Assembly (NCBI GenBank): GCA_031441465.1
Contig: JANOEP010000002.1
Coordinates: forward strand, 1-15,181
Reading direction: 5' to 3'
Source of the DNA: a bacterium
GTDB taxonomy: Bacteria; Krumholzibacteriota; Krumholzibacteriia; LZORAL124-64-63
Length of the DNA stretch: 15,181 nt
Part shown: positions 1 through 14,261 of the stretch, piece by piece
Numbering within the stretch: position 1 is the stretch's first letter
Layout: every line of letters starts with the position of its first letter
Program-made: the position numbers and the translations under genes
Notes under the pieces: model-generated
Seen by the model: the letters and a program-made list of their open reading frames with translations, nothing else
The model's database searches: none
What the model was told of the DNA's origin: nothing

Positions 1-547
1 AGCCGAGCAGGGTCAGCGGCAGGCCGAGATCGTTGTTCAGATTGCCGGCGGTCGCGTGGACGCGGGCGACGGCGCCGGCCAGCGCCGCCAGCAGGTCCTT
101 GGTGGTGGTCTTGCCGTTGGTGCCGGTGACGGCGGCGAGACGCGCCGGACAGAGCGTGCGCCAGCGGCCGGCGAGCACGGCCAGCGCGGCCTCGGGGTCG
201 CGGCTGAGCAGCACCGTCGCGCCGGCGGGCGCCGGACCGTCGAACAGCGGGTCGGGCGGCGTGCCGTCCCAGCGACGGGTCAGCGCCGCCGTGACGCCGG
301 AACGCAGGGCGTCCGGGACGTGGCGACGGCCGTCCGTCCGCTCGCCGGCCAAGCCCACGAAGAGCCGGCCCGCCTGCGCAACGCGCGAGTCGAGCGACGC
401 GCCGTGGAAGCTGGTGTCGGGCAGCGCCGACGGGTCGGTCGCGAACACCCAGGCGCCGCCGCGCGCGACGCCCGCGCCGTCCCACAGGTTCGCGGCCGCC
501 AGGTCCGTTCCCGCGCGACGCAGGTCGTAGCCGCGATCAGGCGTCAC
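1..547 (-). CDS. murF: UDP-N-acetylmuramoyl-tripeptide--D-alanyl-D-alanine ligase (5' part; runs off the window start)
   Basis: Not in the ORF track, translated by hand from GTG at 547 (GGAGGT 5 nt upstream). Reads MTPDRGYDL...SLDSR...LFVGLAGERTDGRRHV...AVTGTNGKTTTKDLL...TAGNLNNDLGLPLTLLG. Contains the Mur-ligase P-loop and the MurF-typical GNxNNxxGxPxTL motif. Lies directly after murE with an 11-bp overlap. Confidence 0.95.
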   Translation of the reverse strand, partial: MTPDRGYDLRRAGTDLAAANLWDGAGVARGGAWVFATDPSALPDTSFHGASLDSRVAQAGRLFVGLAGERTDGRRHVPDALRSGVTAALTRRWDGTPPDPLFDGPAPAGATVLLSRDPEAALAVLAGRWRTLCPARLAAVTGTNGKTTTKDLLAALAGAVARVHATAGNLNNDLGLPLTLLG

Positions 548-2072
548 GGGCCACCTCCGCGATCCAGTCCCGCACCAGCCGGCGGTCGTCCAGGTCGAGG
601 CGACGGTCGCCCACCAGCTGGTAGTCCTCGTGGCCCTTGCCGGCGATCACGATCGTGTCGCCGTCGACCGCGGCGGCCAACGCCCCGCGGATCGCCGCGG
701 CGCGGTCCGGTTCCAGGCGGCAGGCGGTCGAGCGCGGGGAGGTCTCGGCCCGGAACCCGTCGGCGATCTGGTTGCAGATCTCGCCGGGCTCCTCGCTGCG
801 CGGGTTGTCCGAGGTGATCCACGTCGCGTCGGCCAGCCGCGCCGCGACGGCGCCCATCAGGGGCCGCTTGCCGCGGTCGCGGTCGCCGCCGCAGCCGAAG
901 ACCGCGACGAGCCGGCGCGGCGAGAGTTCGCGGCAGGACTGCAGGACCGCGGCCAGGGCGTCGGGCGTGTGCGCGTAGTCGACGACCGCCGTGGCCCCCG
1001 AAAGCAGCGCGAAACTTTCCATGCGCCCGGGCACCTGTTCGGCCGCGGACAGGGCGGCGAGGCAGTCCGACGACGGGTAATCCAGCGCGAGGCCCGCGGC
1101 CAGGGCGGCGGTCAGGTTCTCGACGTTGAAACGGCCCACCAGGCGGCTCTCCAGTTCGAGCCGCGCGCCGCGCCAGTCCAACTGCAGGCGGGTCCCGCCG
1201 CGGCGCAGGTCGGCGGCGCGCACCGCGAGATCGGCCGCCGCGCCCGGACGACGGCCCGTGGCGTAACGAACGACGCGCAGCCCCGCGGTGGCCAGGTCGT
1301 CGAAAGCCGGTTCGTCGGCGTTCAGCACCGCGACACCGTCGGGCTTGCCGCGCCGGTCGCCCCGCAGCAGGTCCAGGATGCGCGCCTTGGCCCGCAGGTA
1401 GTCGTCGAGGTCGGCGTGGTAGTCCAGATGGTCCCGCGAGAGGTTCGTCATGACCGCGGCGTCCAGCGCGAGGTCGGCCGTGCGGCCCTGGTCCAGGGCG
1501 TGGGACGACACTTCCAGCGCCACGGCCCGCCGGCCGTGCCCGCGCATCTCGGCCAGCAGACCGTAGAGGGTGGGGCCGTCGGGCGTGGTCAACGGCGCCG
1601 CGACGCTGCGCGCCCCGGTCTCGTAGCGGATGGTGCCCAGCAGGCCGCAGGGGCCCGCGCAGCGCTCGAGCAGCCGCCGCAGCAGCCAGGCCGTGGTCGT
1701 CTTGCCGTTGGTGCCGGTGACCCCGACCACGCACAGCGCCGCGTCGGGCCGCCCGGCGACCTCGCGCGCCAGCCGCGCGGGCCAGGGCCGCGTCCCCCGC
1801 ACGCGCAGGACCGGCACGCCCGCCGACGCCAGCATGTCTGTGCGGAGCGGGGCGTCCTCTTCGACGAGCACGGCCGCGCAACCGGCGGCGGCGGCGGCGG
1901 CGAGGTGGGTGTGCCCGTCGGCCGCCGCGCCGCGCACGGCGACGAACAGCACGCCCGGTGCGCAGCGGCGCGAGTCGACCGCGACGCCGGACACGCCGAT
2001 CGGCGCCGACGGCAGCGGCGCGTCGGTCGCGAGTTGCGGGAAGCCCGCCAGGAGTTGCGCCAGCGTCACCAT
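537..2072 (-). CDS. murE: UDP-N-acetylmuramoyl-L-alanyl-D-glutamate--2,6-diaminopimelate ligase
   Basis: Motifs DSR, GVTGTNGKTT, LTTPD, LEVSSHALDQGR, NLSRDHLDYH, VDYAHTPDAL, FGCGGDRDRGKRPLMG, TSDNPRSE (DNPR indicates meso-DAP specificity) and AGKGHEDYQ. The start may instead be GTG at 2069, which overlaps the ftsI stop (GTGA). Confidence 0.97.
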   Translation of the reverse strand: MVTLAQLLAGFPQLATDAPLPSAPIGVSGVAVDSRRCAPGVLFVAVRGAAADGHTHLAAAAAAGCAAVLVEEDAPLRTDMLASAGVPVLRVRGTRPWPARLAREVAGRPDAALCVVGVTGTNGKTTTAWLLRRLLERCAGPCGLLGTIRYETGARSVAAPLTTPDGPTLYGLLAEMRGHGRRAVALEVSSHALDQGRTADLALDAAVMTNLSRDHLDYHADLDDYLRAKARILDLLRGDRRGKPDGVAVLNADEPAFDDLATAGLRVVRYATGRRPGAAADLAVRAADLRRGGTRLQLDWRGARLELESRLVGRFNVENLTAALAAGLALDYPSSDCLAALSAAEQVPGRMESFALLSGATAVVDYAHTPDALAAVLQSCRELSPRRLVAVFGCGGDRDRGKRPLMGAVAARLADATWITSDNPRSEEPGEICNQIADGFRAETSPRSTACRLEPDRAAAIRGALAAAVDGDTIVIAGKGHEDYQLVGDRRLDLDDRRLVRDWIAEVARDA

Positions 2073-4189
2073 CGCTCCACCATCTTCACCGCGATCCCTT
2101 CGGTCCCGATCGGCAAACCCGGCAGCGGGGTCTGTTCACCCACGTAGCCGGTCCCCTCGCAGCGCAACGGCACGCCGAGGCGCGCGGCCTCGCGCCGCAC
2201 GTCGCGGTTGGACCAGCCGAGCAGGTCGGGGCAAAGCCGGGCATCGGCGCCGGCCGGAGCGCGGGCCGGGGCCACGGTCACGGTGACGGTCTCCCCGGGC
2301 AGGCACTTCGTGCCCGCGCCGGGCACCTGGGCCACGACCATGCCCTCCCCCACGGCGCCCGCGAGGTGCAGGCCGGCCCCGGCGACGGCCTCCCGCGCCG
2401 CGGCGGCCGACAGGTAGAGCAGGTCCGGCACGGGCGTCGCCCCGCTGCGGTCGCGGCGGGGCAGCCGGACGTGCGCCGCCGATTCCGCGCCCACCAGCCA
2501 GTCCGTGCCGCGTCCGATCTCCTGGACGATCCGCCCGAAAAGCGGGGCCGCGCTCTGCGAGGCGTAGTGGTGCGCGTAGTCGGGTTCGTCCAGCATCGTC
2601 AGGATCACCAGGCGCGGCTCCCTGGCGGGCACCATCCCCAGGAACGTCGACATGTACTTGCCCGGCTGATAGCCCAGTTTCGGCAGGGCCTTCTGGGCCG
2701 TGCCGGTCTTGCCGCCGCACTCGATCCACTCCAGCCCGGCGGCCCGCCCGGTGCCGCGGCGCACGACCTCGGCCATCGAGTCGCGCAGCAGGGCCGCCAC
2801 CTCGGCCGACATGACGCGGCGCAGGACTTCGGGCTCGCCGCGCTCGACGACCGTGCCGTCCTTGTTGCGGATCTCGGCGATGAGCCGCGGCGCGAGCAGC
2901 ATCCCGCCGTTGGCCACCGCGGCGGCCGCCATCGCCAGCTGGATCGGCGTGGCCAGCAGTTCCTGGCCGATCGCGATGGTCGACTGCGTGCGCCGCGACC
3001 ATTTCTTCGGCTCCTGCAACGCGCCGCGCGTGCGGCCGGGGTAGAGCACGTCGTCGAGGACGCCGAAGCCCATTTTGGTGAGGTCCTCGTAGAACTCCTC
3101 GCGCTCCAGCCCGAGCACGGTGCGCGCGAAATAGACGTTGCTGGAGTGGACGAACGCGTTCAGGAACGAGATGCGCCCGAAGTCGTGACCCTCGGAGTTG
3201 TGGATCTTGTAGCGGTCGAACTGGATGTTGTCGCAGTCGTAGACGGTGACGGTGTCGAGCGCGGAACGGTCGAGCAGCGCGGCTGTGGTGAAGATCTTGA
3301 AGATCGACCCCGGCTCGTACGCCCCCGTGAAGACAAAGTTGTCCCAAGCTTCGGGCCCCTTCGCGTCGCTGCGCGCGCCGAGCACGGGCGTGTCGGCGGC
3401 GGCGAGGATGTCGCCGGTGCGCGGGTCGACGATCAGCACGGTGCCGCCGGACGCGCGGCAACTGTCCACGGCCGCGGCGAGTTCCTGTTCGGCGATCAGC
3501 TGGAGGTCGGCGTCGATGGTCAGCTTCACGTCGTGCCCGTCGCGGGGCGGCACGGTCACCTGCAGCCCGTCCGTGTTCGCGCCCGGCCCCATCTTGTAGA
3601 GCAGGCCCTTGCCCGCCTGCCCCGCCAGCTGCCCGTCGTACGAGCATTCGAGACCGGCCGTGAGGTTCTTGCCGCCGCTGTCCGGGTTGCAGAATCCCAG
3701 CAGCGAGGCGCCGGCGCCGCCCATGGGGTACGAGCGGGTGTGCAGCGGCTCCAGCTCGATCCCGGTCAGGCGCCGCAGCGCGTTCAGGGTGTCGCCGTGC
3801 AGGACGGCTTTGCGGTCGATCAGGACGTACTCGCGGTTCGCCTTGGCCCGCCGCAGGCGGCCGGCGAGCACGCCGGCGTCCTGCCCGACCAGGGGCGACA
3901 TCGTCGCCGCCATGGCGTCGGGATCCTGGTCCTGCAGGTTCTTGCCGGAGACGCCCAGGCGCCAGGTGATGATCGACAACGCGAGGGAACGGTCGTTGCG
4001 GTCGTAGATGTTGCCCCGCGCCGCCGGCAGAACCTGTTGGTCCTGCCACTGCTTCTTGGCCAGGGCGAGGTAGTGATCGTGCTGGTAGACCTGCACCTGG
4101 ACCAGGCGCAGCGCCAGGATCAGGAAGGGGATGACCGACAGCCGCTGCAGGAGCCGCAGTCGCGTGCGGTTCGTTCCCCGCCGCATCAT
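2066..4189 (-). CDS. ftsI: Class B penicillin-binding protein (septal transpeptidase FtsI/PBP3) with two C-terminal PASTA-like repeats
   Basis: Start reassigned to ATG 4189 (ATGA overlap with the ftsL stop). N-terminal membrane anchor, then RGNIYDRN, RSYP, GLE and LTIDADLQ. Catalytic motifs SxxK (EPGSIFK), SxN (HSSN) and KTG (GKTGTAQ). C-terminal repeats VPDLLYLS...VVAQVPGAG and CPDLLGWS...VGEQTPLPG. Canonical position between ftsL and murE. Confidence 0.93.
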   Translation of the reverse strand: MMRRGTNRTRLRLLQRLSVIPFLILALRLVQVQVYQHDHYLALAKKQWQDQQVLPAARGNIYDRNDRSLALSIITWRLGVSGKNLQDQDPDAMAATMSPLVGQDAGVLAGRLRRAKANREYVLIDRKAVLHGDTLNALRRLTGIELEPLHTRSYPMGGAGASLLGFCNPDSGGKNLTAGLECSYDGQLAGQAGKGLLYKMGPGANTDGLQVTVPPRDGHDVKLTIDADLQLIAEQELAAAVDSCRASGGTVLIVDPRTGDILAAADTPVLGARSDAKGPEAWDNFVFTGAYEPGSIFKIFTTAALLDRSALDTVTVYDCDNIQFDRYKIHNSEGHDFGRISFLNAFVHSSNVYFARTVLGLEREEFYEDLTKMGFGVLDDVLYPGRTRGALQEPKKWSRRTQSTIAIGQELLATPIQLAMAAAAVANGGMLLAPRLIAEIRNKDGTVVERGEPEVLRRVMSAEVAALLRDSMAEVVRRGTGRAAGLEWIECGGKTGTAQKALPKLGYQPGKYMSTFLGMVPAREPRLVILTMLDEPDYAHHYASQSAAPLFGRIVQEIGRGTDWLVGAESAAHVRLPRRDRSGATPVPDLLYLSAAAAREAVAGAGLHLAGAVGEGMVVAQVPGAGTKCLPGETVTVTVAPARAPAGADARLCPDLLGWSNRDVRREAARLGVPLRCEGTGYVGEQTPLPGLPIGTEGIAVKMVERW

Positions 4190-4656
4190 CGCGAGCGATC
4201 GGCGGCGGCGGCCGCCGCGACTCTCTCGCCGCTGCCGACCGACGCCACGACCCGCTGCCACAGGGGCTGCTCGCCGGCGCTTTCCTGGCCGGCCATGACC
4301 ACGATCAAGCCCGGGGCGTCGGAACGCTGCAGCCCGAGTTCCCGCTGCGCGCGGTCGAGGATGCAGGTCCGTGACGTCTCGGCGTTCCATTGCTGCTCGA
4401 GCAATCCGAGCTGCGTCTCGAGGTAGGCCTTGTCGGCCAGGAGCGATTGCAGGGCCCGACGGCCGGTCACGATCCCGTTGGACAGCGTGATCAGCGAGGA
4501 CAGCACGGCCAAGGCCCCCACGCAGAACGCGGCGGTGACCAGCGGCGTGCGGCCGCGCATCTCGCGGCGGCAGGCCATCGGTCCCGCCCGGCGGCGCAAC
4601 GAGGGCTGGCGGCGGCAGGCCTGGCCGGGTACCCGGATCGTCATGTGCATGGTCAC
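4186..4656 (-). CDS. ftsL: Cell division protein FtsL-like bitopic coiled-coil protein
   Basis: Lies between rsmH and ftsI with 4-bp overlaps on both sides (GTG 4656; ATG 4650 is an alternative start). Basic cytoplasmic N-terminus, one TM helix (LVTAAFCVGALAVLSSLITL), a leucine heptad (LQSLLADKAYLETQLGLLEQQW) and the FtsL-type motif ILDRAQRELGL. Confidence 0.75.
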   Translation of the reverse strand: MTMHMTIRVPGQACRRQPSLRRRAGPMACRREMRGRTPLVTAAFCVGALAVLSSLITLSNGIVTGRRALQSLLADKAYLETQLGLLEQQWNAETSRTCILDRAQRELGLQRSDAPGLIVVMAGQESAGEQPLWQRVVASVGSGERVAAAAAADRSR

Positions 4657-5573
4657 AGCCTTTCCGCGGCCCGCAGCTTCGCGCTGCGCGCCCGCGGGTT
4701 GGTCCCGACCTCGGACGCCGGCGGCACCTCCGGGCGGCGGGTCAGGAGCGTCATCGAACGCCGGTGGCCGCAGACGCAGGCGGGCGTCCGCGGCGGGCAC
4801 AGGCAGTCGCGGCTCTCGCGCGCGAGCCACTGCTTCACGGCGCGGTCTTCCAGCGAGTGGTAGGAGATCACGACCAGGCGCCCGCCCGCGGCCAACCGCG
4901 CCGGCGCCTGCTCCAGGGCGTCCTGCAGGGCGCCCAGCTCATCGTTCACCGCGATGCGCAGGGCCTGGAAGACGCGGCTGAGCGTCGGGGTGAGCACGGG
5001 ACCGCGGCCCACGGCCCCGGCGACGACTTCACGCACCGCGCCGGTCGTGGCCAGCGGCGCCTCGCGGCGCGCGATGGTCATGGCGGCGGCGATGCGCCGC
5101 GAGCGGCGCTCTTCCCCGAAGGTCCACAGCAGCGTCGCCAGCGCGGTCTCGTCCAGTCGAGCCAACAGGTCCGCCGCCGACGGCCCGCCGGCCGGGTCGA
5201 AGCGCAGGTCCAGGGGGGCGTCGACGCGGTAGGTGAAGCCTTTGGACGGCTCGTCGATCTGCAGGGAGCTGACGCCCAGGTCGAGCAGCAGCCCGTCCGC
5301 CCGCTCCCAGCCCGCGGCCGCCAGGGCGCCGGCCAGATCGCGGAACGAACGGTGCTGGAAATGGAAGCGCGACTCGGCGGCCGCCAGGTTGCGCCCGACG
5401 ACGCCGGCGTCGGGATCCAGGTCGAGGCCCAGCACCTCGGCCCCCGTCGCCAACAACGCGCGGGCGTGCCCGCCCTGGCCGAAGGTGCCGTCGATGATCC
5501 GCCGCCCCGGGCCCGCACCCAGCAGCCTCACCGACGTCTCGCGCAGCACGGGGATGTGGGCCGGGGCGTTCAC
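4653..5573 (-). CDS. rsmH: 16S rRNA (cytosine(1402)-N4)-methyltransferase RsmH (MraW)
   Basis: Motifs HIPVL, DGTFGQGGH, LDLGVSSLQID, FGEER, FQALRIAVNDEL, ISYHSLEDR and NPRARSAKLR. The GTG start overlaps the upstream stop (GTGA). Confidence 0.97.
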   Translation of the reverse strand: MNAPAHIPVLRETSVRLLGAGPGRRIIDGTFGQGGHARALLATGAEVLGLDLDPDAGVVGRNLAAAESRFHFQHRSFRDLAGALAAAGWERADGLLLDLGVSSLQIDEPSKGFTYRVDAPLDLRFDPAGGPSAADLLARLDETALATLLWTFGEERRSRRIAAAMTIARREAPLATTGAVREVVAGAVGRGPVLTPTLSRVFQALRIAVNDELGALQDALEQAPARLAAGGRLVVISYHSLEDRAVKQWLARESRDCLCPPRTPACVCGHRRSMTLLTRRPEVPPASEVGTNPRARSAKLRAAERL

Positions 5574-5968
5574 GAAGCACCGGTCCCGCCGGCCGCGGCG
5601 GACGGCGCGACGCGCAACGCCGCCGCCTCGCCGTACTGGTCGCCGAGGATCAGGATCGCCCGGTGGTAGGGATGCCAGCCCGCGAGCAGCAGGGTGTGGC
5701 CGTAGTCGCGCAGATGGCGGTGCCAGGCGACGAGATCGCGCACCGCCCGGAAGTCGAGGTGGGCGAGCCCGCGCCCGTCCAGGACGATCTGGCAGTCCCG
5801 GCGCTGGAGGCGCGGCCGGACCGCGGCGACGAGCCGCTGGAGCATGGGGCGATCCAGTACACCGGAGAGAGTGACCCGAACGTCACCGTCGCGTTCGCGA
5901 ATCTCGAAGCCGAGGCCACCCTCAAGAACGTACAGTTGCGGCGGCCGTCGGGTCGACTCTCCCGGCAT
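5570..5968 (-). CDS. STAS-domain (anti-sigma-factor-antagonist/MlaB fold) protein lacking the phosphoacceptor serine
   Basis: 132 aa, with purine-rich GAAGGGAAGGGAAG just before the ATG and a stop overlapping the rsmH start. The pattern VRVTLSGVLD...IVLDGRGLAHLDFRAVRDLVAW...GHTLLLAGWHPYHRAIL follows the STAS consensus (GxLD...vvlDxxxvxfiDSsg...g.xl.l....p.v..il). Confidence 0.75.
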   Translation of the reverse strand: MPGESTRRPPQLYVLEGGLGFEIRERDGDVRVTLSGVLDRPMLQRLVAAVRPRLQRRDCQIVLDGRGLAHLDFRAVRDLVAWHRHLRDYGHTLLLAGWHPYHRAILILGDQYGEAAALRVAPSAAAGGTGAS

Positions 5969-6065
5969 GGGCTTCCCTTCCCTTCGTCGGCCCGCCCTCC
6001 GTGGCGAGCCCAGGCTCCCTCCGACCTCGCGGCCGCCGATCCGTCGGCGACCCTTCTGCTCCGGC
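5969..6065 (-). promoter_or_regulatory. Structured intercistronic leader with repeated ANGGA motifs (candidate post-transcriptional control element)
   Basis: On the minus-strand RNA there is a 9-bp hairpin GGUCGCCGA-CGGA-UCGGCGGCC (6052-6031). A second stem GUCGG/CCGAC (6025-6021 with 5990-5986) encloses two small hairpins. ANGGA occurs at 6044-6040, 6020-6016, 6002-5998, 5983-5979 and 5978-5974. Confidence 0.35.
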
Positions 6066-6545
6066 TCAGCGCCGGACGAAGAAAAACGTGTTCATGAATT
6101 CCTTCGACGGCGCCTCCTGCGCCTGGTTGGTCTCGTCGTAGGCCTGCTTGTCCCACAGTTCCAGGTAGTGCCCCATCCCCACCAGCACGATGCGCTCCGA
6201 GATGCCGACCCTCTGGAGGATGTCGATGGGGACGGTGACGCGGCCCTGCTGGTCCGGCACGATGTCCGTGCTCTGGCCGCTGAGGCGACGTATCTGATCG
6301 CGCCACTGCTCGTCCTGGCCCTGCTGCTGGGCCATCAGGAACGACGCGTCCCACTCCTCGCGCGGGAACAGGGCGAGGCTCTTCGCCGAGGCGACCGTCA
6401 CCACGTACTTCTCGTCCTCGACCATGACGCCGCCGCACCGGAACTTCGCGGGCAGGTTGAAGCGGCCCTTGCCATCCACGACGCGCTCCTGGGCGCCCGT
6501 GAACGGGGACCTCCTGCGGCTGCCGTCGTGGGTCTGGTCGGTCAT
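6066..6545 (-). CDS. mraZ: Transcriptional regulator MraZ
   Basis: Two AbrB/SpoVT-like repeats with the DxxGR signatures (FTGAQERVVDGKGRFNLPAKFR and VPDQQGRVTVP) plus LVGMGHYLELWD. First gene of the dcw cluster. Confidence 0.95.
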   Translation of the reverse strand: MTDQTHDGSRRRSPFTGAQERVVDGKGRFNLPAKFRCGGVMVEDEKYVVTVASAKSLALFPREEWDASFLMAQQQGQDEQWRDQIRRLSGQSTDIVPDQQGRVTVPIDILQRVGISERIVLVGMGHYLELWDKQAYDETNQAQEAPSKEFMNTFFFVRR

Positions 6546-6586
6546 GGCGGCGCGGAATCCTGTCGCTGGGGGGGCGTTCCTTCTGT

Positions 6587-6612
6587 CACCACTTCAAACC
6601 ACTCATCACCAA
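6587..6612 (-). promoter_or_regulatory. MraZ-binding direct repeats (three boxes, 10-bp period)
   Basis: The minus strand reads TTGGTG-atga-GTGGTT-tgaa-GTGGTG. This matches the GTGG(A/T)G-N4 repeat arrangement known for MraZ operators and lies just downstream of the predicted transcription start. Confidence 0.8.
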
Positions 6613-6625
6613 TGAACGCCTCAGC

Positions 6626-6654
6626 ACCTTAGTCCTTCACCAAATCAGTGTCAA
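6626..6654 (-). promoter_or_regulatory. Sigma70-type promoter of the dcw operon (Pmra)
   Basis: Perfect -35 TTGACA (6654-6649), a 17-bp spacer and -10 TAAGGT (6631-6626, fits TAnnnT). It sits in the only AT-rich stretch of the window. Predicted TSS is about 6619-6620. Confidence 0.85.
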
Positions 6655-6740
6655 GGGGGTAAGAACGATATTTTCCAAAATCGTCATCATATTGATTTAT
6701 AAGGAGTTGATCGAAGAATGAGGGGGGTCGCTGGTCGAAA

Positions 6741-8033
6741 TCAGGTGTGGGCGGAAAAATCTCCCCGGACGGGCAGGATCAGCTGCCGCCAGGACAGGGA
6801 GCCGACCTTGCGGAAGCGGGCCAGCATGACCGTGCTGCCGACGGTGTAGGCCAGTGACGTGGCGATCGCCGCCCCCAGCGGACCATGGCGCGGGATCAGC
6901 AGCAGCCCCGCTCCCACGTTGACCGCCAGGGTGACCAGGCTGGCCTGGGTGTTCCAGGCGGACCGCCCACGCCCGATGAAATCGCCGGCCAGCACGGCGC
7001 CCGGCGCGCAGGCCACGATGCCGGGCAGCAACGCCCACAGGGCCGGTACCGCCGAGCGGTATTGGGCGCCGAAGACCGCCGCCAGCAGCAGCGGCGCGGC
7101 GACCGCCGCCAGGCAGGCGGCCGCGGCCGTGGCCGCGAGCGCGACCCGCACGGCGCGCGCCGAGGTGGCCACGCCCGCCTCCCGGTCATCCGTCGCGGAC
7201 GACCAGACCAGCAGGGGCTGCAAGGCGCTCGGCAGCAGCCACAGCACTTCGCCGATCATCACCGCCACCGAGTAGACGCCCACCGCTTGCGCGCCGTGCC
7301 AGGCCGCGACCAGGGCCAGGGCCAGACGCATGTGCAGCAGCGAGACGACCGCCGACAACTGGCCCTGCCAGCCCGCCCGCAGCAGCCCGGCCAAACCACC
7401 GGTTTCCCGAACCGGCGCGCCGACGGCGGCGCGACCCGCGCTGCGCGCGGTCAGCCAACCGAACACCGCGACGCCGGCGATCTGGCTGACGGCGAAGACG
7501 ACCAGGGCGGTCGCGAGTCCGAACACGCCGCTCGCGAGGGCGACACCCAGCAGCGCCAGCTGCAACAGGCCCCGGCCCAGGTTCACGGCGGTGCCCGTCC
7601 GCAGACGTCCCAGGGCCAGCAGGTCGTAGGTGAGGATGTCCGAGAGCAGCAGGGCCGCGAGCGCGCCGGCCATCGCCGCGGCGGTCGCCGCGCTCCAACC
7701 CAGACGGGCGGCGAGCGCCGCCCCCGCGTCGGTCCGCCAGGCGAGCGCCCCCAGGGCGGCGGCCACGAGCGTCACGCCGACGGTCCAGAGCGCCTGGGTC
7801 CGCAACAGGGACCGCGCAGCGGCCGGGCGGCGTCGGATGGTCGGGACCGCGGCCAGACCCACGCCGCCGTTGACGGCGGCGGCTACGAACATCAGCAGCG
7901 TGATCCCCAGCGCGTAGCGGCCTTGCCCGTCCGGCCCGAGCACGCGCGCGACCACCAGCCCGGCGCCCGCGCCGGCCGCGGCCTGGCCGAGTCGCAGCCC
8001 GAGCACCGCCGCGCCTTCGCGCAGGAGTTTCAT
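6741..8033 (-). CDS. Wzx-type (MOP superfamily) oligosaccharide flippase
   Basis: Start reassigned to ATG 8033 (GGGGAGGGAG upstream, ATGA overlap). About 12 hydrophobic segments. Motifs ARVLGPDGQGRY, AVGVYSVA, VFGAQY and LLIPRHGPLGAAIATSLAY are typical of polysaccharide-biosynthesis flippases. Confidence 0.85.
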   Translation of the reverse strand: MKLLREGAAVLGLRLGQAAAGAGAGLVVARVLGPDGQGRYALGITLLMFVAAAVNGGVGLAAVPTIRRRPAAARSLLRTQALWTVGVTLVAAALGALAWRTDAGAALAARLGWSAATAAAMAGALAALLLSDILTYDLLALGRLRTGTAVNLGRGLLQLALLGVALASGVFGLATALVVFAVSQIAGVAVFGWLTARSAGRAAVGAPVRETGGLAGLLRAGWQGQLSAVVSLLHMRLALALVAAWHGAQAVGVYSVAVMIGEVLWLLPSALQPLLVWSSATDDREAGVATSARAVRVALAATAAAACLAAVAAPLLLAAVFGAQYRSAVPALWALLPGIVACAPGAVLAGDFIGRGRSAWNTQASLVTLAVNVGAGLLLIPRHGPLGAAIATSLAYTVGSTVMLARFRKVGSLSWRQLILPVRGDFSAHT

Positions 8034-9043
8034 GAACTCCCTCCCCGCCGCAACGACAGCGCCGCGGCGCCGAGGCGCGACGTCCGCCGCCACATCGCGC
8101 GCTCCAGCGTCAGGGCGCCGAGCAGTTCCTTGAACTGCGCCACGCCCTGCTGGCCGCCGTGGCCGCCGAGATCCAGGCGCGCCGCCCCGCGCCGGCAGGC
8201 TTCCTCGAGATCGGCCCAGACCAGCAACGTCGCCGGGAACACGTCGTCCAGACCGTCGACGGTGGCCCCGACCCAGGCGGTCACCGTCCCGCCGGCCTGC
8301 AGGCAGAGGTGGGCGCCCAGCAGCGCGCCGTCGCGGCGGACCGTCGTGCAGTACGCCTGGCCGCCGCCGTCGGCGAGCAGGCCGCGCAGCAGACCGCCGG
8401 GGATCGGACGCGACCCCCAGCGCCGGATCGCCGCGGCGTAGATCGGCAGGAACTCGTCGATCACGGCAGGATCGGACGTGACCTCCGTCGTGCAGCCGCG
8501 CCGCAGCGAGCGGTTGCGCTCGTTGCGGCGATTCTTTTTCAGCAGGTGCGCCTCCACGTGGTCGAGGCCCTGCGCCAGCGGGAAGTAGGCCACGGGCACC
8601 GCCGTGCGCCGGAACCCGGCCCCGGCGAGCGGTGCGGCCACGTCGTCCGCGGCCGGGCCCTCGGCGTGCAGCGTCGCGGCCAGGGTCAGCGGTGCGCGCG
8701 CGGCGGCGATCCAGGCGTCCAGCAGGATTGCGAGGGTGCCGCGGCGCCGGACCGGGTCGAGATCCGGCCGCACCAGCAGATCGCAGGGCAGGCCGGCGTG
8801 GTGGGCTTCCAGCGTGCGGAAAGGGCCGCGCGCGGTCTCGATCCAGGCGAGCCCGCCGATGGTCTCCCCCGCCGCGGCGACGGTCGCCCAGACGCCCGTG
8901 CGGCGCGGCATGTGGGCGCAGAGCGCCGCGGTCCAGACGCCCGCACCGGCGAAGCCGCCGCCGCAGAGCGCGTGCAGGCGCCGCCAGTCCGGATCCGGCC
9001 GATCGCCGCGCCCGAGGACGTGGACCGCTGCGGGATGCGACAT
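8030..9043 (-). CDS. GNAT-superfamily (FemABX/CelD-BcsL/DUF482-like) acyl- or aminoacyl-transferase
   Basis: Start reassigned to ATG 9043, 8 nt after the upstream stop. Shows KKNRRNERNRSLRRG (the KxRxxiRra..G helix), FLPIY, PATLLVWADLEEACRRGAARLDLGG and GVAQFKELLGA (the FK.xfGa end motif). Confidence 0.8.
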   Translation of the reverse strand: MSHPAAVHVLGRGDRPDPDWRRLHALCGGGFAGAGVWTAALCAHMPRRTGVWATVAAAGETIGGLAWIETARGPFRTLEAHHAGLPCDLLVRPDLDPVRRRGTLAILLDAWIAAARAPLTLAATLHAEGPAADDVAAPLAGAGFRRTAVPVAYFPLAQGLDHVEAHLLKKNRRNERNRSLRRGCTTEVTSDPAVIDEFLPIYAAAIRRWGSRPIPGGLLRGLLADGGGQAYCTTVRRDGALLGAHLCLQAGGTVTAWVGATVDGLDDVFPATLLVWADLEEACRRGAARLDLGGHGGQQGVAQFKELLGALTLERAMWRRTSRLGAAALSLRRGGSS

Positions 9044-9051
9044 GCCCACCC

Positions 9052-11463
9052 TCAGCGGACCAGGGCCAGCGGCATCACGCGCACCTGTCCCGCCAGTTCC
9101 ACGCGCACGAGGTACGTACCGGAAGCCGCGGCGTCGCCGGTGAGGTTGGCCCCGTTCCAGAACGCCGCGTCGGACGCGACGTGGCGGTCGCGGTACACCA
9201 GCTGGCCGTCGAGGGTGTAGACCTCCACCTGGGCGCCGCCGCTGATCGCGAGGGGCGTCGTGACGGTCTCGGCGACGACGCCGCCGAGGCGCAGCCCGGC
9301 GTGCTCGTCGACCCGCAGCGGGTTCGGGTACAGGAAGAGCGGCGCGAGCGGCCCCTCGCCCGCGGTGCTGTTGCGTTCGATGGTCACCAGCACGGCGCCG
9401 CCCGCGGCGCCGGCGAGCAGGCGCATCCCGGTGGCGTCGGTCGTCAACTCGCGCACCGGTCCCTGCGGGGTGCCGGACACGATGTCCGCCGTGTAGTAGG
9501 CGGCCAGTCCGTAGCTCGCGAATTCGGCGGCGTTGGTGAAGGGGTCGACCAGCACCTCGCCGTTGCGGATCCGCACGCGTTCGAGCCCGGCGTCGTGGCC
9601 GACCCACACGTCGCCGTTGCCGTCGATCTCCACGTCCAGCAACGTGCCCTGGAGCAGACCGGGCGTCGCACCGTCCACCTTCGCCCGCAGCGAGCGCACC
9701 AGCGTCATGTCCAGCGTGTCGTCGTCGTACGTCCGGTAGGAAAGCTGCGCCAGCCCGCTGCCGCCGCCGACCCAGATCGTTCCGTCCGGGGCGACGTCGA
9801 CCGCGCGCACGCTGTCGAATTCGAAGCCGGCGCCTTCCACCGTGGCCGGGGGCGTCCAGATGTCGTCGCCGGCATCGGTCCAGGTCAGCGTCGCGCCGGC
9901 GCCGGCGGCGCCGTTGACGTCCCAGAGCACCAGACCCACGCCGGTCACCGCGAACCAGATCCGGTCGCGGCCGTCGACGACGGCGTCGAAGACGACGCCG
10001 CCGCCCAGACCGGTGTTGTCGGTCGGCAGGCGGATCCAGGACGACGGGTCCCGCCAGTGATCGGGATCGACCAGCACGTCGACGCCGTCACGATCGCTGA
10101 GCAGCAGCACGGGGCCGTCGGGGTGGTGCACGATCCGCGCGATGCGGCGCGACGACATCGGCGACGTGTCGGGCGTCAGGTGGTCCATGTCGGGGATGTC
10201 CGGCCGGTAGCGGATGACGCCGGATTGGAACTGCGTGAACCAGATCTCGCCGTCGGCCCGGGCCGTGAAGGCGAGCACGCCGCCGTCGAAATTGAACAGG
10301 CCGACCGAGTCCGCGGCCGCGGCGGCCAGGTTGGTGATCTGCGTCCACGCGAAGCCGTCGCGCCGCGCGATGCCGCCGCCCTGCCGCGAGCCGAACCAGG
10401 GGACGCCCGCGGCGTCGAAGGCGACGCCGTCGACGGAGGTGAACAGCAGCTCGTCCGACTCGATCAGGTTCCAACCGTCGCCGATGCGGCTGGCGACGAA
10501 GGAGCGGGCCGCCTTGAGGTTCGCAGGCTCGGGACGCCGCAGGCCGGCGCACCAGAGCCGGTCGGTGCCCTCGAGCGCGTGCACGGCGGCTTCGGGCGCG
10601 TCGACGGCCTGCCAGGCCGCGCCGTCCCATCGCCGCAGGCGTCCGGCGGTACCGGCCGCTTCGACCAGAGCCCAAGGTTCGGCGCCGACGTGGGCGAGGT
10701 CCGTCACCAGCAGCGTGAGGTCGCCCAACCGGCTCCACACGTCCGTTTCCTCGCTCCACGACCAGACGCCGTTACCGGCGCCCGCCAGGAGGCCCAGTCC
10801 CGGAACGCGCCGCAGCGCGAACACGGCTTGCGTGCCGATCCCGGCGCTCGCGTCGCTGACCGCGTTGTTGCGCTGCAGCGAGATGCCGCCCGCGGTCGCG
10901 ATCCACAGGTCGCCGCCGTCGAGCAGCAGGTCCAGGACGATGTCGCTCACCAGACCGGGCGTGTTCGCGGTGGTCATCACGCCGCCGGGCAAGCCGCCGC
11001 TGATCACGCCCACGCCGCCCGCCTGCAAACCGTAGTAGACGCGCTCCGCGTTCGCGGCGACGGCCGTGATCGCGAGGTCGGAGCCGAGATTGGTCACGCG
11101 ACGGAACACGGGCGCCACCGGATCGGGGTCGACCCGGGTCAGACCCGCGCCCGGGCAGGCCACCCAGAGATGGGTGCCGCTCCAGGCCAGGTCGACGACG
11201 CGGTCGCCGGCGAGGCCGTCGACCGCCCCCCAGCGCCCGGTGATGCCGCCGTCGGCGTTCATCACCAGCACGCCCCCCTCGGCGAGACCGCCGAACAGCC
11301 GACCGTCGGCCGCCAACAGGGCGACGCAATCCTGGGCGCTCAGGACGGTTTCGAGACGGACCGCCTGAGCGCTCGCGCCGGGCGCGGCGGCGACGGCGAC
11401 GAACAGCGCCGTCAAGAACAGCGCCGGGGCGAGCGCGCGCGCGGACAGATGATTGCTCTTCAC
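9052..11463 (-). CDS. Secreted beta-propeller protein with C-terminal T9SS-CTD/FlgD-Ig-like domain (PorZ-like architecture)
   Basis: GTG start with AGGAG and a GTGA overlap. Signal peptide ending APGASA. More than ten propeller-blade repeats (LWVACPGAGL, LWIATAGGI, PWFGSRQGGGI, IWFAVTGVGL, IWVGGGSGL, VWVGHDAGL) and NTPGLVSDIV. Tail reads LYPNP...VEVYTLDGQLV...WNGANLTGDAAASGTYLVRV...MPLALVR. Confidence 0.75.
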   Translation of the reverse strand: MKSNHLSARALAPALFLTALFVAVAAAPGASAQAVRLETVLSAQDCVALLAADGRLFGGLAEGGVLVMNADGGITGRWGAVDGLAGDRVVDLAWSGTHLWVACPGAGLTRVDPDPVAPVFRRVTNLGSDLAITAVAANAERVYYGLQAGGVGVISGGLPGGVMTTANTPGLVSDIVLDLLLDGGDLWIATAGGISLQRNNAVSDASAGIGTQAVFALRRVPGLGLLAGAGNGVWSWSEETDVWSRLGDLTLLVTDLAHVGAEPWALVEAAGTAGRLRRWDGAAWQAVDAPEAAVHALEGTDRLWCAGLRRPEPANLKAARSFVASRIGDGWNLIESDELLFTSVDGVAFDAAGVPWFGSRQGGGIARRDGFAWTQITNLAAAAADSVGLFNFDGGVLAFTARADGEIWFTQFQSGVIRYRPDIPDMDHLTPDTSPMSSRRIARIVHHPDGPVLLLSDRDGVDVLVDPDHWRDPSSWIRLPTDNTGLGGGVVFDAVVDGRDRIWFAVTGVGLVLWDVNGAAGAGATLTWTDAGDDIWTPPATVEGAGFEFDSVRAVDVAPDGTIWVGGGSGLAQLSYRTYDDDTLDMTLVRSLRAKVDGATPGLLQGTLLDVEIDGNGDVWVGHDAGLERVRIRNGEVLVDPFTNAAEFASYGLAAYYTADIVSGTPQGPVRELTTDATGMRLLAGAAGGAVLVTIERNSTAGEGPLAPLFLYPNPLRVDEHAGLRLGGVVAETVTTPLAISGGAQVEVYTLDGQLVYRDRHVASDAAFWNGANLTGDAAASGTYLVRVELAGQVRVMPLALVR

Positions 11464-13517
11464 GAGTTCTCCTGTTCAGTGGTCCCACGTTCGAGCCGGG
11501 AAATGCCGGCCGGATCGTACAATGCGCGACGGAGACGGGCCGTCCCGGCGCCCGCCCAAACGCCGCTCAGACCGGCGACGGGCGGTTCGAGGCGCCAGGG
11601 ATCGCCGGCGGTTCCCGGCGGTGGCGGCGCCCCGCCGGGACCGGCTGGGACGAGCGGGGCTCCCGAGAGTGCCAGGTGCCCGCCGACCAAGGCCCGGGCC
11701 AGAGCCGGTTGCCGGAGCAGACCGCGGGGGCGGCCGTCGCGGCCGCAGACCAGGCGCCAGGTCCGCGCCAGCGATTCCTCACCGGCCGGCGCCGCCTGGA
11801 AATTCCGGACCGTCCCTCCCCGACGCAGGCGCGCCAGCCCGGCGAGCGGGGCGCTCACCGCCAGCAGGAGCAGGCCCAGGGCAGCGGCGGCGAGGCGCTT
11901 GGCGACGTCCAAGGCCGGGCGCGCCGGTCCGGGATCGAGCACGGCGCTCGAGACGCCGCCGAAATCCTCGGCGTGGGCGCCGGCCTGCAGCAACGCCGTC
12001 GCGTCCACGCGCCAGCGCAACCGGACCCGCCGGCGCCGCAGCAGAGCCAAGGCCCGCAACTCGGAAGCTTCGCCCGTCGGCCACTGCCAGAACACGACCT
12101 GGGCGATGCGGTAGCGCTCGACGACGTCGACGAGGTCCGCGGGCGAGCCGAGGCGGGGTACGTCCGGGCCGCTCGGCGCGGCGCCGCCCAACGCCCCGTC
12201 GGCGGACAGGTAACCCACGGCGTCCAACCCGCAGCTGCGCGGGTCCGGACCGCCGTCCAGCCAGCCCGTCACCTCGGCGGCGGCTCCCACCAGCAGCGTG
12301 CGCTCCAGCGACAGGTAACCGCGTTCCATGCGGCGGCGCAACGCCAGGAACGCCGACTCGCTCAACAGGAGCGTCCCGAGCAGGAGCGGCCAGAACAGCA
12401 ACAGCACCACGCGGCTGTAGATGTGCTGGTGGCTCATGTAGGTGCTCGCCCACAGCAACAGGGTGACGGCGGCGACCTGCTGCATCCGGTCCCCCGCGCG
12501 CAGTGAGTGCCCGCGGGCGCCGCGCCGGTAGCGTCCCAGCAGCAGGAAGCCGAGGCTCGTCAGCAGGTTGGCGAACACGAACAGGGGCCGGTACCAGGCG
12601 AGCGGCAGCAGCGGCTCCTCGAAGAAGGGGTTGAGCGCGCCGCGCAGGGCGTAAGCGGCCAACAGCGACAGGTTGAGCGCCGCCAGGTCGGTCAACCAGA
12701 ACGCGAAGGTGCCCAGGGGATCGCGCCAGCGCTTGAGCAGGTAGACCAGCAGCCCCCACTTCTCGTAGAACGAGATCAGGCTGGTCAGGTGCAGCCAGAA
12801 GCCGCGGCGCAGCGGGCCGCCCGCGCTGTCGCGGCGATGCCGGTGGACGAAGCGGGACTCCGGGGCGTAGAGCACGTCGTACCCGGCCTGGCCCATCCGG
12901 TAGCACCAGTCGACGTCCTCGAAGTAGAGGAAGAAGCGCTCGTCCATGGCGCCGACGCGGGCCACGGCCTCGCGGCGCACCAGCACGCAGCCGCCGATGA
13001 CCCAGTCCACGGGCCGCGTCGTCAGGTGGTCGAAGTCGCGCATCAGGTGGCGGGCCACGGCGCGGGAGCCCGGTGAGAGGCGGCCCAGGATCGTGCGCCG
13101 CATCAGCAGGGTGCCGAGCGTGTAGAAGCGACGGCAGGATTCCTGGATCGTGCCGTCCTCGTTCAGCAGCTGCGGTCCCAGCAGGCCGGCCCGGGGGTGC
13201 GCCGCGGCGGCCCGCAGCAGCGCGTCGACGGCGCCCGGCTGGGCCACCACGTCGGGGTTCAGCAACAGGGTGAATTCGGCGTCCACGGCCCGCAGGCCCT
13301 GGTTGCAGCCGCGGGCGTAGCCCTCGTTGCGGGCGTTCATGAGCCAGCGCACGCCGGGGTGCGCCTCGCGGATCGCGGCGAGACCCGGCTCGGTCGAGGC
13401 GTTGTCCACGACCGTCACCGTGTGGTCGCAGGCCGGCGGGCAGCGCGCCAGCGCGTCCAGGCAGCGGCCGAGGTCGCCGCTGGTGTTGAAGTGGACGATG
13501 ACGACCGAGAGCTTCAA
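11460..13517 (-). CDS. GT2 (WbbL-like) glycosyltransferase fused to a WcaJ/WbaP-like membrane, Rossmann-like and degenerate phosphoglycosyl-transferase module
   Basis: Start reassigned to TTG 13517 (GGAGG 6 nt upstream, TTGA overlap). The GT2 part has LSVVIVHFN, VVDNAS, NEGYARGCN, LLLNPD, DWVIGGC and MDERFFLYFEDVDWCYR. It is followed by four TM helices (TDLAAL...YSRVVLLLFW), TLLVGA...DAVGYL...LGSPADLVDVVERYRIAQV, then KRLAAAALGLLLL...GHLALSG...VAGLSG. Confidence 0.85.
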   Translation of the reverse strand: MKLSVVIVHFNTSGDLGRCLDALARCPPACDHTVTVVDNASTEPGLAAIREAHPGVRWLMNARNEGYARGCNQGLRAVDAEFTLLLNPDVVAQPGAVDALLRAAAAHPRAGLLGPQLLNEDGTIQESCRRFYTLGTLLMRRTILGRLSPGSRAVARHLMRDFDHLTTRPVDWVIGGCVLVRREAVARVGAMDERFFLYFEDVDWCYRMGQAGYDVLYAPESRFVHRHRRDSAGGPLRRGFWLHLTSLISFYEKWGLLVYLLKRWRDPLGTFAFWLTDLAALNLSLLAAYALRGALNPFFEEPLLPLAWYRPLFVFANLLTSLGFLLLGRYRRGARGHSLRAGDRMQQVAAVTLLLWASTYMSHQHIYSRVVLLLFWPLLLGTLLLSESAFLALRRRMERGYLSLERTLLVGAAAEVTGWLDGGPDPRSCGLDAVGYLSADGALGGAAPSGPDVPRLGSPADLVDVVERYRIAQVVFWQWPTGEASELRALALLRRRRVRLRWRVDATALLQAGAHAEDFGGVSSAVLDPGPARPALDVAKRLAAAALGLLLLAVSAPLAGLARLRRGGTVRNFQAAPAGEESLARTWRLVCGRDGRPRGLLRQPALARALVGGHLALSGAPLVPAGPGGAPPPPGTAGDPWRLEPPVAGLSGVWAGAGTARLRRALYDPAGISRLERGTTEQENS

Positions 13518-14242
13518 GCCGCGCCTCCGGTACCGCGCGGTTCCCGCCGCAACCGCAGCGCCCAGACCATCCACATCGCTTCCCAGACGATCCGCTTGGA
13601 CATCTTCGAGACGCCGACCTGGCGGTCGACGAACATGATCGGGATCTCCTTGATGCGGTACCGCCGCCGCCAGCAATGGTAGTTCATCTCGATCTGGAAG
13701 GAGTAGCCGTCGCTCTTGATGCGCGACAGCGGCAGGGCCGCGAGCACCTCGCGCCGGAAGCACTTGAAGCCGCCGGTGGAATCCTTGATGGGCATGCCCG
13801 TGACCCGCCGCGCGTAGAGGTTCGCGCCGACGCTCAGGATCACCCGCCGCAGCGGCCAGTTGACCACCGTGATGCCATAGAGGTAGCGGCTGCCGAGCAC
13901 GACGTCGTGATCCCGGATCTCCTGCAGGAACGTGTCGATGGCGGCGGGATCATGGCTGAAGTCGGCATCCATCTCGAAGACGACTTCGGCGTCGGTGTTG
14001 GCCAGGATCCACTGGAAGCCGGCGATGTAGGCGGCGCCCAGCCCCGCCTTGCCCGGCCGCTCGAGCATCCGGACGCGGCCGCCGAAATCGGGCAGCGCCT
14101 TGACCACGGCGGCGGTCCCGTCCGGCGAGTTGTCGTCGACGACCAGGACCGAGATGCCGGGATCGCGGGCCAGGACCGCCGGCACGATGCGGCCGATGTT
14201 GTCGGCCTCGTTGTAGGTCGGGATGACGACCACGCTTTTCAC
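13514..14242 (-). CDS. Polyprenol monophosphomannose synthase-like (Dpm1/Ppm1 family) GT2
   Basis: Start reassigned to GTG 14242 (GAAGGTGG upstream). Motifs IPTYNEADNI, VDDNSPDGT, GLGAAYIAGF, EMDADFSHDP, GSRY, DSTGGFKCFRR, GYSFQIE and EIPIMFVDRQVGVSKMS. The donor sugar cannot be determined from the sequence. Confidence 0.92.
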   Translation of the reverse strand: MKSVVVIPTYNEADNIGRIVPAVLARDPGISVLVVDDNSPDGTAAVVKALPDFGGRVRMLERPGKAGLGAAYIAGFQWILANTDAEVVFEMDADFSHDPAAIDTFLQEIRDHDVVLGSRYLYGITVVNWPLRRVILSVGANLYARRVTGMPIKDSTGGFKCFRREVLAALPLSRIKSDGYSFQIEMNYHCWRRRYRIKEIPIMFVDRQVGVSKMSKRIVWEAMWMVWALRLRREPRGTGGAA

Positions 14243-14261
14243 GACGCCACCTTCCTGCCCG

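Follow-up and report, generated by a model that had tools for sequence, protein, structure and literature searches.

In most bacteria, mraZ and rsmH head the division and cell wall (dcw) operon, and their role in division is poorly understood. In Escherichia coli, MraZ acts as a repressor of the operon, and its toxicity is relieved by an excess of RsmH. In this study, we analyzed a stretch of 15,181 nucleotides (nt) from a member of the phylum Krumholzibacteriota (GenBank assembly GCA_031441465.1, contig JANOEP010000002.1, positions 1 to 15,181; hereafter the window), in which a gene for a stand-alone STAS-domain protein of 132 amino acids (aa), here called dcw-STAS, separates mraZ from rsmH. 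Judged from the genomes compared, the gene appears to be a regular third member of the mraZ-rsmH operon head in much of this phylum and in Myxococcota. Such a conserved third gene is an unexploited handle on the module, and its presence in the genetically tractable Myxococcus xanthus makes its role addressable.

SpoIIAA and RsbV (PDB entries 1TH8, 1TIL, 1AUZ, and 6M36) resemble dcw-STAS as stand-alone STAS proteins of about 110-130 aa with the same topology, matching the model of the window protein with TM-scores of 0.71-0.77 on the target and root-mean-square deviations of 2.3-3.0 Å. However, dcw-STAS has no Ser/Thr phosphosite; the residue at this site is Phe in the window protein and Tyr or Phe in most of its relatives. 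The kinase and PP2C phosphatase genes that neighbor SpoIIAA/RsbV-type genes are not beside dcw-STAS either, which has mraZ and rsmH instead, and the RsbV/RsbW-like pair of the genome is located on another contig. dcw-STAS would clearly exemplify how a stand-alone STAS protein can depart from the kinase/phosphatase partner-switching logic. A second comparison is MlaB, the STAS accessory subunit of the MlaFEDB lipid transporter (PDB entries 6XGZ and 7CH7). This non-phosphorylated stand-alone STAS protein has a constitutive enzyme partner and so illustrates the mode of action proposed below. MlaB is the weaker fold match (E = 4.8e-3 to 5.8e-3), and no mla or ABC transporter genes were found among the open reading frames (ORFs) of the window that were scanned.

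Identification of the dcw-STAS gene

The preliminary description of the window, made from its sequence alone, had placed a 132-aa ORF with its own purine-rich ribosome-binding site between mraZ and rsmH. This was borne out, as the purine-rich sequence GAAGGGAAGGGAAG is found 4 nt before the ATG; the Shine-Dalgarno sequence of the gene reads GGGAAGGAGCCC in other genera. The existing gene call in the sequence collection gives a 91-aa product that begins at Met42 (5570-5845) and is without the first two strands of the domain. The 132-aa form is supported over the 91-aa form, because residues 1-41 and the ribosome-binding site are conserved across genera and the strands within residues 11-38 were confidently modelled. 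The genome of the window carries one STAS gene copy of the dcw type.

The protein is 89-92% identical among the seven genomes of the genus. The median ratio of nonsynonymous to synonymous substitution rates (dN/dS) was 0.32 for the STAS gene (Nei-Gojobori method, 21 pairs of the seven genus members) and 0.20 for rsmH by the same method, the latter including six pairs spoiled by a frameshift in locus L005. Purifying selection, which the preliminary description had proposed to test by dN/dS, is thus shown for the STAS protein.

The families of the phylum are labelled f1-f9, f1 being the family of the window. Codons 2-4 of the gene (window 5960-5968, reverse strand) read CCG-AGA/GGA-GAG in nearly all loci. 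AGA is seemingly a rare Arg codon in this GC-rich genome, and its recurrence suggests that the first codons are constrained as nucleotides. Only family f1 has the N-terminal motif M-P-R-E-[ST]-T-R, and this segment was modelled as disordered.

Fold and family membership

The assignment of the product to the STAS fold was confirmed by profile, model, and structure searches. The Pfam profile STAS_2 (PF13466) matched residues 32-108 with 41.1 bits against a cut-off of 29.2, and the Pfam profile STAS (PF01740) remained under its cut-off of 22.6 with 18.5 bits. The AlphaFold2 model built from 40 orthologues displayed STAS topology with a predicted local distance difference test (pLDDT) value of 78.2 and a predicted TM-score (pTM) of 0.72. 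The core of the model exceeded 83, residues 21-110 were mostly near or above 90, and disorder was confined to the two termini. The modelled secondary structure consists of strands at 20-26, 29-38, 60-71, and 92-96 and helices at 40-53, 73-88, and 100-109.

Foldseek returned 18 matches in the PDB at E <= 1e-3, and all those listed were STAS proteins or STAS-containing chains. The top matches were 4hyl_B (2.4e-6, a Haliangium anti-sigma antagonist), 1til_B (2.9e-6, SpoIIAA), and 6m36_B (2.5e-5, RsbV). The leading matches also included 1th8 (SpoIIAA), TM1442, and RsbS, and the STAS domains of SLC26/prestin as well as MlaB ranked lower. The profile search of PDB sequences likewise placed SpoIIAA chains first, with E values of about 3e-4. 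There is thus no reasonable doubt that the product of the window ORF is a STAS domain. The ESM Atlas search returned generic STAS clusters only, all with scores below 0.9.

Longer relatives were also considered. The 436-aa relative P0047 had given a clue to a domain fusion, which was rejected as an out-of-frame read-through caused by a frameshift artefact. Seven other longer or extended relatives were scanned; six carry the STAS domain alone, and P0067 carries a zinc ribbon in addition. A fusion of the SulP/SLC26 transporter type is absent in the window, where the gene is a stand-alone ORF between the mraZ stop and the rsmH start, although no search was aimed at longer fusions.

Conservation of the gene order within Krumholzibacteriota

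In six of the nine families, all related loci examined carried the gene in the gap between mraZ and rsmH. The first set of related loci showed the order MraZ-STAS-RsmH in 20/20 cases, and the loci of species genomes showed it in 48/49, the exception being the truncated locus L068. The weaker profile matches from families f2, f3, f5, and f6 were ORFs of 120-200 aa, flanked by mraZ and rsmH in 14/14 cases. Direct inspection of the gap between mraZ and rsmH revealed an ORF in 5/5 loci of f3, in the single locus of f8 (1/1), and in 4/4 informative loci of f6. The synteny that had been proposed as a test across the lineage accordingly holds in six families, and it extends to the Myxococcus-type loci described below.

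Using a 10-sequence profile, we detected the gene in 85 of 90 other f1 genomes at E < 1e-20. Two of the five f1 genomes without a match also had no detectable rsmH, which points to incomplete assemblies as the reason for these misses.

Three loci of family f7 (L132, L133, and L135) have no STAS gene, yet their MraZ ends in a D-W-E-Y tail as in f3 and f8. Because f7 MraZ shares this C-terminal tail with the two gene-bearing families, the sequences suggest a clean secondary loss of the gene in f7.

Myxococcus-type members

A cross-family profile was compared to 1.84 billion representative proteins. The search yielded 11 matches at E <= 1e-30 and 348 at E <= 1e-10, beyond which the list ran into the tail of general STAS proteins. 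Beyond the clear orthologues, 61 more single-domain proteins kept the three residues described in the next section (His70, Tyr/Phe73, and Tyr101). The cluster names of these 61 include Myxococcus xanthus (ABF87244.1, Q1D0S1), Corallococcus, and Pyxidicoccus; further names are Myxococcaceae, Myxococcales, and metagenome-assembled genomes of Myxococcota (NCBI, UniProt). A metagenome scan that used one Myxococcus-type protein, P0072, as its only query returned 13 loci. In loci L153-L164, mraZ was directly upstream in 12/12, and rsmH was directly downstream in all nine with enough DNA (9/9). The STAS/rsmH junction of these P0072 relatives was GTGA in four of the six that were read.

The gene context in M. 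xanthus DK1622 was taken from the annotation table in the supplement of a published study (Munoz-Dorado et al., eLife 2019;8:e50374). There, MXAN_5614 (MraZ), MXAN_5613, MXAN_5612 (RsmH), and MXAN_5611 (FtsL) follow one another without interruption on the reverse strand. MXAN_5613, also designated MXAN_RS27200 and assigned here to the cluster of ABF87244.1 and Q1D0S1, has 387 nt and is annotated as 'anti-sigma factor antagonist' in supplementary files 3, 7, 10, and 11 of that study, and the expression values and read counts in these files are close to those of mraZ. We equated MXAN_5613 with the protein P0162 by matching length and annotation, not by sequence comparison.

According to the same table, MXAN_5613 resembles the window gene in its position (MraZ-STAS-RsmH-FtsL) and in its size of 128 aa. 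P0162 also agrees with the window protein in the His, the Tyr, and the S-P-Y-L turn, each in the matching alignment column. However, it is only about 26% identical to the window protein, carries the motif H-L-N-Y-R-G and a G-G-D-[LV]-K-L strand, and is without the N-terminal M-P-R-E-[ST]-T-R extension. The leader of MXAN_5613 in the annotation table is short (46 nt), and a 6-nt gap precedes rsmH instead of an overlap.

The preliminary description had known of no described dcw component of this kind. Literature searches on mraZ or dcw with STAS or anti-sigma antagonist, and on the M. xanthus gene identifiers, found no description, with subscription journals and most supplements outside their scope, and the main texts searched contained no functional study of MXAN_5613. 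In the dcw synteny paper PMC8871954, a search for STAS and anti-sigma gave no mention of either. The ORF itself is already annotated, as the M. xanthus entry indicates, so that only part of the statement stands: the gene is known in annotations as a generic STAS or anti-anti-sigma gene, and its fixed place in the dcw operon is undescribed in the literature searched.

Signature residues and the missing phospho-serine

The translation has the sequence D72-F73-R74-A75 at the phosphorylation loop. Profile alignment with 1th8_B and 1auz_A places the D-S-S of SpoIIAA on D72-[Y/F]73-R74, and Phe73 is aligned with the first Ser. We take this first Ser to be the phosphorylated residue of SpoIIAA, which fits the Ala found there in 1tid_B. 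None of the 27 cross-family members from six families has Ser or Thr at position 73, so the absence of a phosphorylatable serine noted earlier for the window protein holds for its relatives as well.

Tyr101 was invariant (27/27), and His70 was present in 26/27. At position 73, families f1, f2, f3, f5, and f8 have Tyr or Phe, and f6 has Leu, Ile, or Ala. Within f1, neither Asp72 nor Arg74 varies, but outside it both do. Therefore, the D-[FY]-R motif of the preliminary description was retained as a mark within f1 and not elsewhere; the marks that recur across families comprise His70, Tyr101, and a residue of aromatic or aliphatic character at position 73. On the model, these sites map to the end of strand 60-71, the initial turn of helix 73-88, and the turn that leads into helix 100-109, a face that we take to be the one used by SpoIIAA and MlaB for partner binding. 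The canonical RsbV-like paralogue in the same genome has Trp, Ser-Thr, and Arg at the three signature columns and W-V-N-S-T-G at the phosphosite; His70 and Tyr101 are absent from it. By its His70, its Tyr101, and the Tyr/Phe73 that stands where the phospho-serine would be, dcw-STAS appears to be a distinct subfamily.

The residue at position 73 raises the question of a tyrosine kinase switch, in which Tyr73 would replace Ser as the phospho-acceptor. Tyr is the commonest residue at this position in f1, f3, f5, f8, and the Myxococcus-type members. However, the position is Phe in the genus of the window (7/7 genomes), Phe in f2, and Leu, Ile, or Ala in f6, none of which can be phosphorylated, and the gene is kept in all of them. 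This makes a switch at Tyr73 highly improbable.

The same three residues could also form a ligand site instead of a protein interface, with dcw-STAS acting as a small-molecule sensor for a nucleotide, a lipid-linked precursor, or an anion that would inform the division operon of the metabolic state. Some STAS domains bind nucleotides or anions, the STAS domains of SLC26 and prestin are among the fold matches, and residues like this His and the two aromatics are often seen in ligand sites. However, the protein gave no identifiable motif for ligand binding, and the f6 members keep neither Tyr nor Phe at position 73. We consider a sensor role distinctly improbable.

A third alternative concerns the sigma factor network. 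As a non-phosphorylatable decoy antagonist of an anti-sigma kinase of the RsbW/SpoIIAB type, the protein, made together with the division operon, would sequester the kinase constitutively and tie a sigma regulon to dcw expression. Among known structures, those that match best are SpoIIAA and RsbV chains solved in complex with their kinases. The genome contains an RsbW-like gene (HATPase_c_2, 75.6 bits) beside a canonical S-T STAS gene, and RsbW-like genes occur in 202/208 genomes of the phylum. However, they are equally present in the families without dcw-STAS (23/23 in f4, 8/8 in f7, and 12/13 in f9), giving no signal of co-occurrence. The residues that would face the kinase (His70, Tyr/Phe73, and Tyr101) are unlike those of the canonical paralogue, and dcw-STAS was never beside a kinase gene in the loci seen. 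Against the profile for curated anti-sigma antagonists, TIGR00377, the window protein scored 21.1 bits with a cut-off of 53.45; P0162 (29.5) and P0072 (36.7) were also below it, and dcw-STAS is thus not a curated anti-sigma antagonist of this family. On balance, the decoy reading seems unlikely.

The canonical pair lies on contig C37 (L120:1486-2265), where a 112-aa STAS protein with an S-T phosphosite is followed 10 nt later by the RsbW-like kinase. Two further STAS matches in the genome are on contigs C73 and C66.

Promoter, leader, and coupling to rsmH

The preliminary description had placed the gene under MraZ control, and the region upstream of mraZ is compatible with this. Three TGGT-type repeats, which we read as resembling the MraZ boxes of E. 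coli, lie about 70 nt before the mraZ ATG and behind the TTGACA of a promoter-like site. TTGACA recurs at the same place in most related upstream regions, and similar repeats follow it in many related loci. Of the 68 distinct upstream regions, 14 showed the strict three-box repeat pattern, and many more had looser two-box pairs. The scan of 4500-6900 for the sigma-70 consensus gave 0 sites, the TAAGGT at -10 matching in just 3/6 positions.

At the other end of the gene, the TGA/GTG overlap with rsmH seen earlier was confirmed as GTGA at 5573-5570. The gene ends in ATGA (43 loci) or GTGA (10 loci) in 53/53 distinct f1 loci, placing an rsmH start codon over the stop. In the 35 loci with rsmH delimited, the overlapping start is the codon nearest the projected first residue.

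The spacer between mraZ and the STAS gene is 31-226 nt long across the f1 loci and is rich in hairpins with GGA in the loop. At least one such hairpin was present in 53/53 f1 spacers and at least two in 47/53. In total, 176 GGA-loop hairpins were observed, compared to 37.5 expected from mononucleotide shuffles or 43.0 from dinucleotide shuffles, which is an approximately four-fold excess. Their density was 2.78 per 100 nt in the spacer versus 0.81-1.09 in the flanking coding sequences. Six-base ANGGAN hairpin loops concentrate at 3-7 nt and 24-29 nt before the STAS ATG across the loci. The spacer of the window has four GGA-loop hairpins against 0.69 expected, and its Shine-Dalgarno stretch carries GGA repeats. 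No Rfam family reached its gathering score in the window.

GGA hairpin loops, one of them over the Shine-Dalgarno sequence, are CsrA-type sites by consensus and spacing rules. A CsrA gene was found in the genome of the window (81.5 bits) and in 41/41 sampled f1 genomes. The window thus displays the sequence features of a CsrA-regulated leader, as it has at least two GGA loops, including one at the Shine-Dalgarno sequence, in a genome that encodes CsrA. Like known CsrA-controlled leaders, the f1 leader has several ANGGAN loops about 20 nt apart, the last at the ribosome-binding site, in genomes with csrA. Unlike in those systems, CsrA binding to the f1 leader is only predicted, and the CsrA is of the flagellar fliW-csrA type. 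In f1, the stop/start overlap taken together with the GGA-hairpin leader suggests that the early dcw genes may be subject to a common translational gate.

The overlap in 53/53 loci also fits another explanation, by which the cistron is mainly a translated leader that sets the translation of rsmH and the genes downstream, and the protein has little function of its own. The regulatory-looking leader upstream of the gene and its clean loss in three families agree with this. However, the fold and residues are conserved at 20-30% identity over six families and a second phylum-level lineage, the dN/dS is about 0.3, and 132 codons far exceed the length that such a role needs. A mere leader function is accordingly hard to accept, and we rate it as quite improbable.

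A conserved hairpin-rich element was observed upstream of mraZ in many other f1 genera, with two inner GGA-loop hairpins within a long outer stem. It separates the repeat boxes from the mraZ start, and the genus of the window is without it at that place. The loci are L016, L017, L020, L029, L032, L033, L035, L038-L040, L046, L050, L052, L054, L055, L059, L061, L062, and L066. Rfam searches of seven loci with this element gave no family, the lone match at E <= 0.1 being a chance match to a snoRNA.

Partner search and proposed mechanism

The descriptive part of this work, comprising the fold, the absent serine, the synteny, the selection, the stop/start overlap, the GGA hairpins in the leader, and the presence of CsrA, is held with high confidence. 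To account for it, we propose the following mechanism. The STAS gene would be co-transcribed with mraZ from a promoter with MraZ boxes. As the rsmH start codon is part of the STAS stop (ATGA/GTGA), translation of rsmH, and perhaps of the overlapping genes that follow, would be coupled to STAS translation, giving a fixed STAS:RsmH ratio. In f1, STAS translation, and hence that of rsmH, would be gated by a CsrA-type RNA-binding protein on GGA hairpins about 25 and 5 nt before the ATG. The protein would not be switchable by serine phosphorylation and could act as a constitutive binding module. Binding would use the usual STAS face, which carries the signature residues and is formed by the beta3-alpha2 loop together with the beginning of alpha2 and the beta4-alpha3 turn. 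The likeliest partner would be a product of the same module, for which we propose RsmH first and MraZ second. Each of these steps, taken singly, is possible but tentative. As the best explanation overall, a coupled dcw-STAS gene that is gated in the manner of CsrA and encodes a constitutive binding module appears to us evenly balanced between right and wrong.

The partner search used complex prediction of MraZ and RsmH with STAS as the partner, and the scores of 0.00 and 0.00, obtained without controls, speak neither for nor against binding.

Several observations weigh against the proposed mechanism. None of the analyses identifies a partner. A column comparison of RsmH (16 f1, 12 from other families, and 7 Myxococcus-type sequences versus 18 from lineages without the gene, with the incomplete loci L067 and L106 dropped) revealed no column that is conserved in the gene-bearing lineages and different in those without the gene. 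Three MraZ columns did split the two groups, but f7, which has no gene, shares the state of the gene-bearing group; the split therefore follows phylogeny and not the gene, and these columns were rejected as candidates. In the directly inspected gaps, a gene was found in 0/4 loci of f7, 0/5 of f4, and 0/5 of f9, where mraZ and rsmH are at most about 150 nt apart, so the protein is dispensable for the module in some relatives. The loci counted throughout are related, and the counts are not independent.

Further points concern expression. As a hint of transcription, a metatranscriptome run yielded one 693-nt contig on 5644-6325 with 70 differences, which in a relative covers the STAS gene, the spacer, and a 3' portion of mraZ; this contig of an RNA library may be contaminating DNA, and contigs cannot prove a transcript. 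A wastewater DNA run contained the entire 2-kb stretch at about 90% identity. Against the proposed gating, the csrA gene sits directly after fliW in a fliW-csrA-fliS flagellar locus (contig C46, L166:516-2273), and in Bacillus-type systems the CsrA of such a locus chiefly controls flagellin. The stem of the Shine-Dalgarno hairpin has just 3-4 bp, and the entire spacer folds no better than shuffled sequences (z = -0.26). The GGA-hairpin leader is also specific to f1; the spacer is just about 15-50 nt long in f2 and in Myxococcus-type loci.

A broader role may be considered, in which dcw-STAS is the third player of the MraZ/RsmH pair. Such a phosphorylation-independent switch, licensed post-transcriptionally (by CsrA in f1), would bind MraZ or RsmH and shift the balance between dcw repression and ribosome methylation, as a division checkpoint shared by Myxococcota and Krumholzibacteriota. 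We regard this extension as speculative, with little chance of being right in full.

Organization of the window and neighboring genes

The features of the dcw region are collected in Table 1.

Table 1. Coordinates of the dcw genes and of the predicted expression signals in the window
Feature	Position	Strand	Basis and remarks
dcw-STAS gene, 132 aa	5570..5968	(-)	ATG start; residues His70, Asp72, Phe73, Arg74, Tyr101
mraZ, 159 aa	6066..6545	(-)	Pfam MraZ 76.6 bits, two stretches
rsmH, 306 aa	4653..5573	(-)	Methyltransf_5 283.2 bits; GTG start overlaps STAS TGA
ftsL-like gene	4186..4656	(-)	Start probably GTG 4656 or ATG 4650, not the first GTG of the ORF at 4830
ftsI	2066..4189	(-)	Pfam: PBP dimerisation, transpeptidase, and PASTA domains; probable ATG 4189 overlaps ftsL stop
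murE	537..2072	(-)	Pfam Mur ligase domains
murF, 5' part, runs off the window	2..547	(-)	Pfam
mraZ-STAS spacer, 97 nt	5969..6065	(-)	GGA-loop hairpins and STAS ribosome-binding site
Hairpin, 9 bp, CGGA loop	6031..6052	(-)	In both minimum free energy and centroid structure; counterpart in most family loci
Hairpin, ACGGAG loop, 28 nt before STAS ATG	5989..6010	(-)	RNA folding
Purine-rich Shine-Dalgarno region AAGGGAAGGGAAG, includes GGA	5972..5984	(-)	Read from sequence
Promoter-like site TTGACA, 17-nt spacer, TAAGGT, upstream of mraZ	6626..6654	(-)	Read from sequence
Three direct repeats TTGGT-N5-GTGGT-N5-GTGGT, 10-nt period, MraZ-operator-like	6588..6612	(-)	Read from sequence

The Pfam scan gave no match for the ftsL-like protein, and the name is based on its position and on the M. 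xanthus annotation; the gene is kept 3' of rsmH in related loci. The chain of overlapping genes from rsmH through murF, also part of the preliminary description, was recovered with tight junctions. The rsmH/ftsL junction is GTGA or a 2-nt gap, depending on the choice of start, and the ftsL/ftsI junction is ATGA. ftsI and murE overlap by 7 nt (or by GTGA), and murE and murF by 11 nt. This tight chain of junctions holds under reasonable start choices.

In RsmH, Cys257, Cys259, Cys266, Cys268, and His270 (within residues 257-270) were invariant in 36/36 aligned family members, and this set looks like a metal-binding cluster. In genome G001 (loci L005/L023/L084), rsmH was recovered by tblastn as two pieces in different frames (residues 1-173 and 174-306), a split that reflects either a frameshift or an error of assembly.

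Upstream of the dcw promoter, a polysaccharide-type gene cluster occupies 6741-15045 on the reverse strand. Its Pfam matches include a Polysacc_synt_3 flippase-like protein, a GNAT protein (Acetyltransf_6), a Reg_prop protein, and two GT2 glycosyltransferases.

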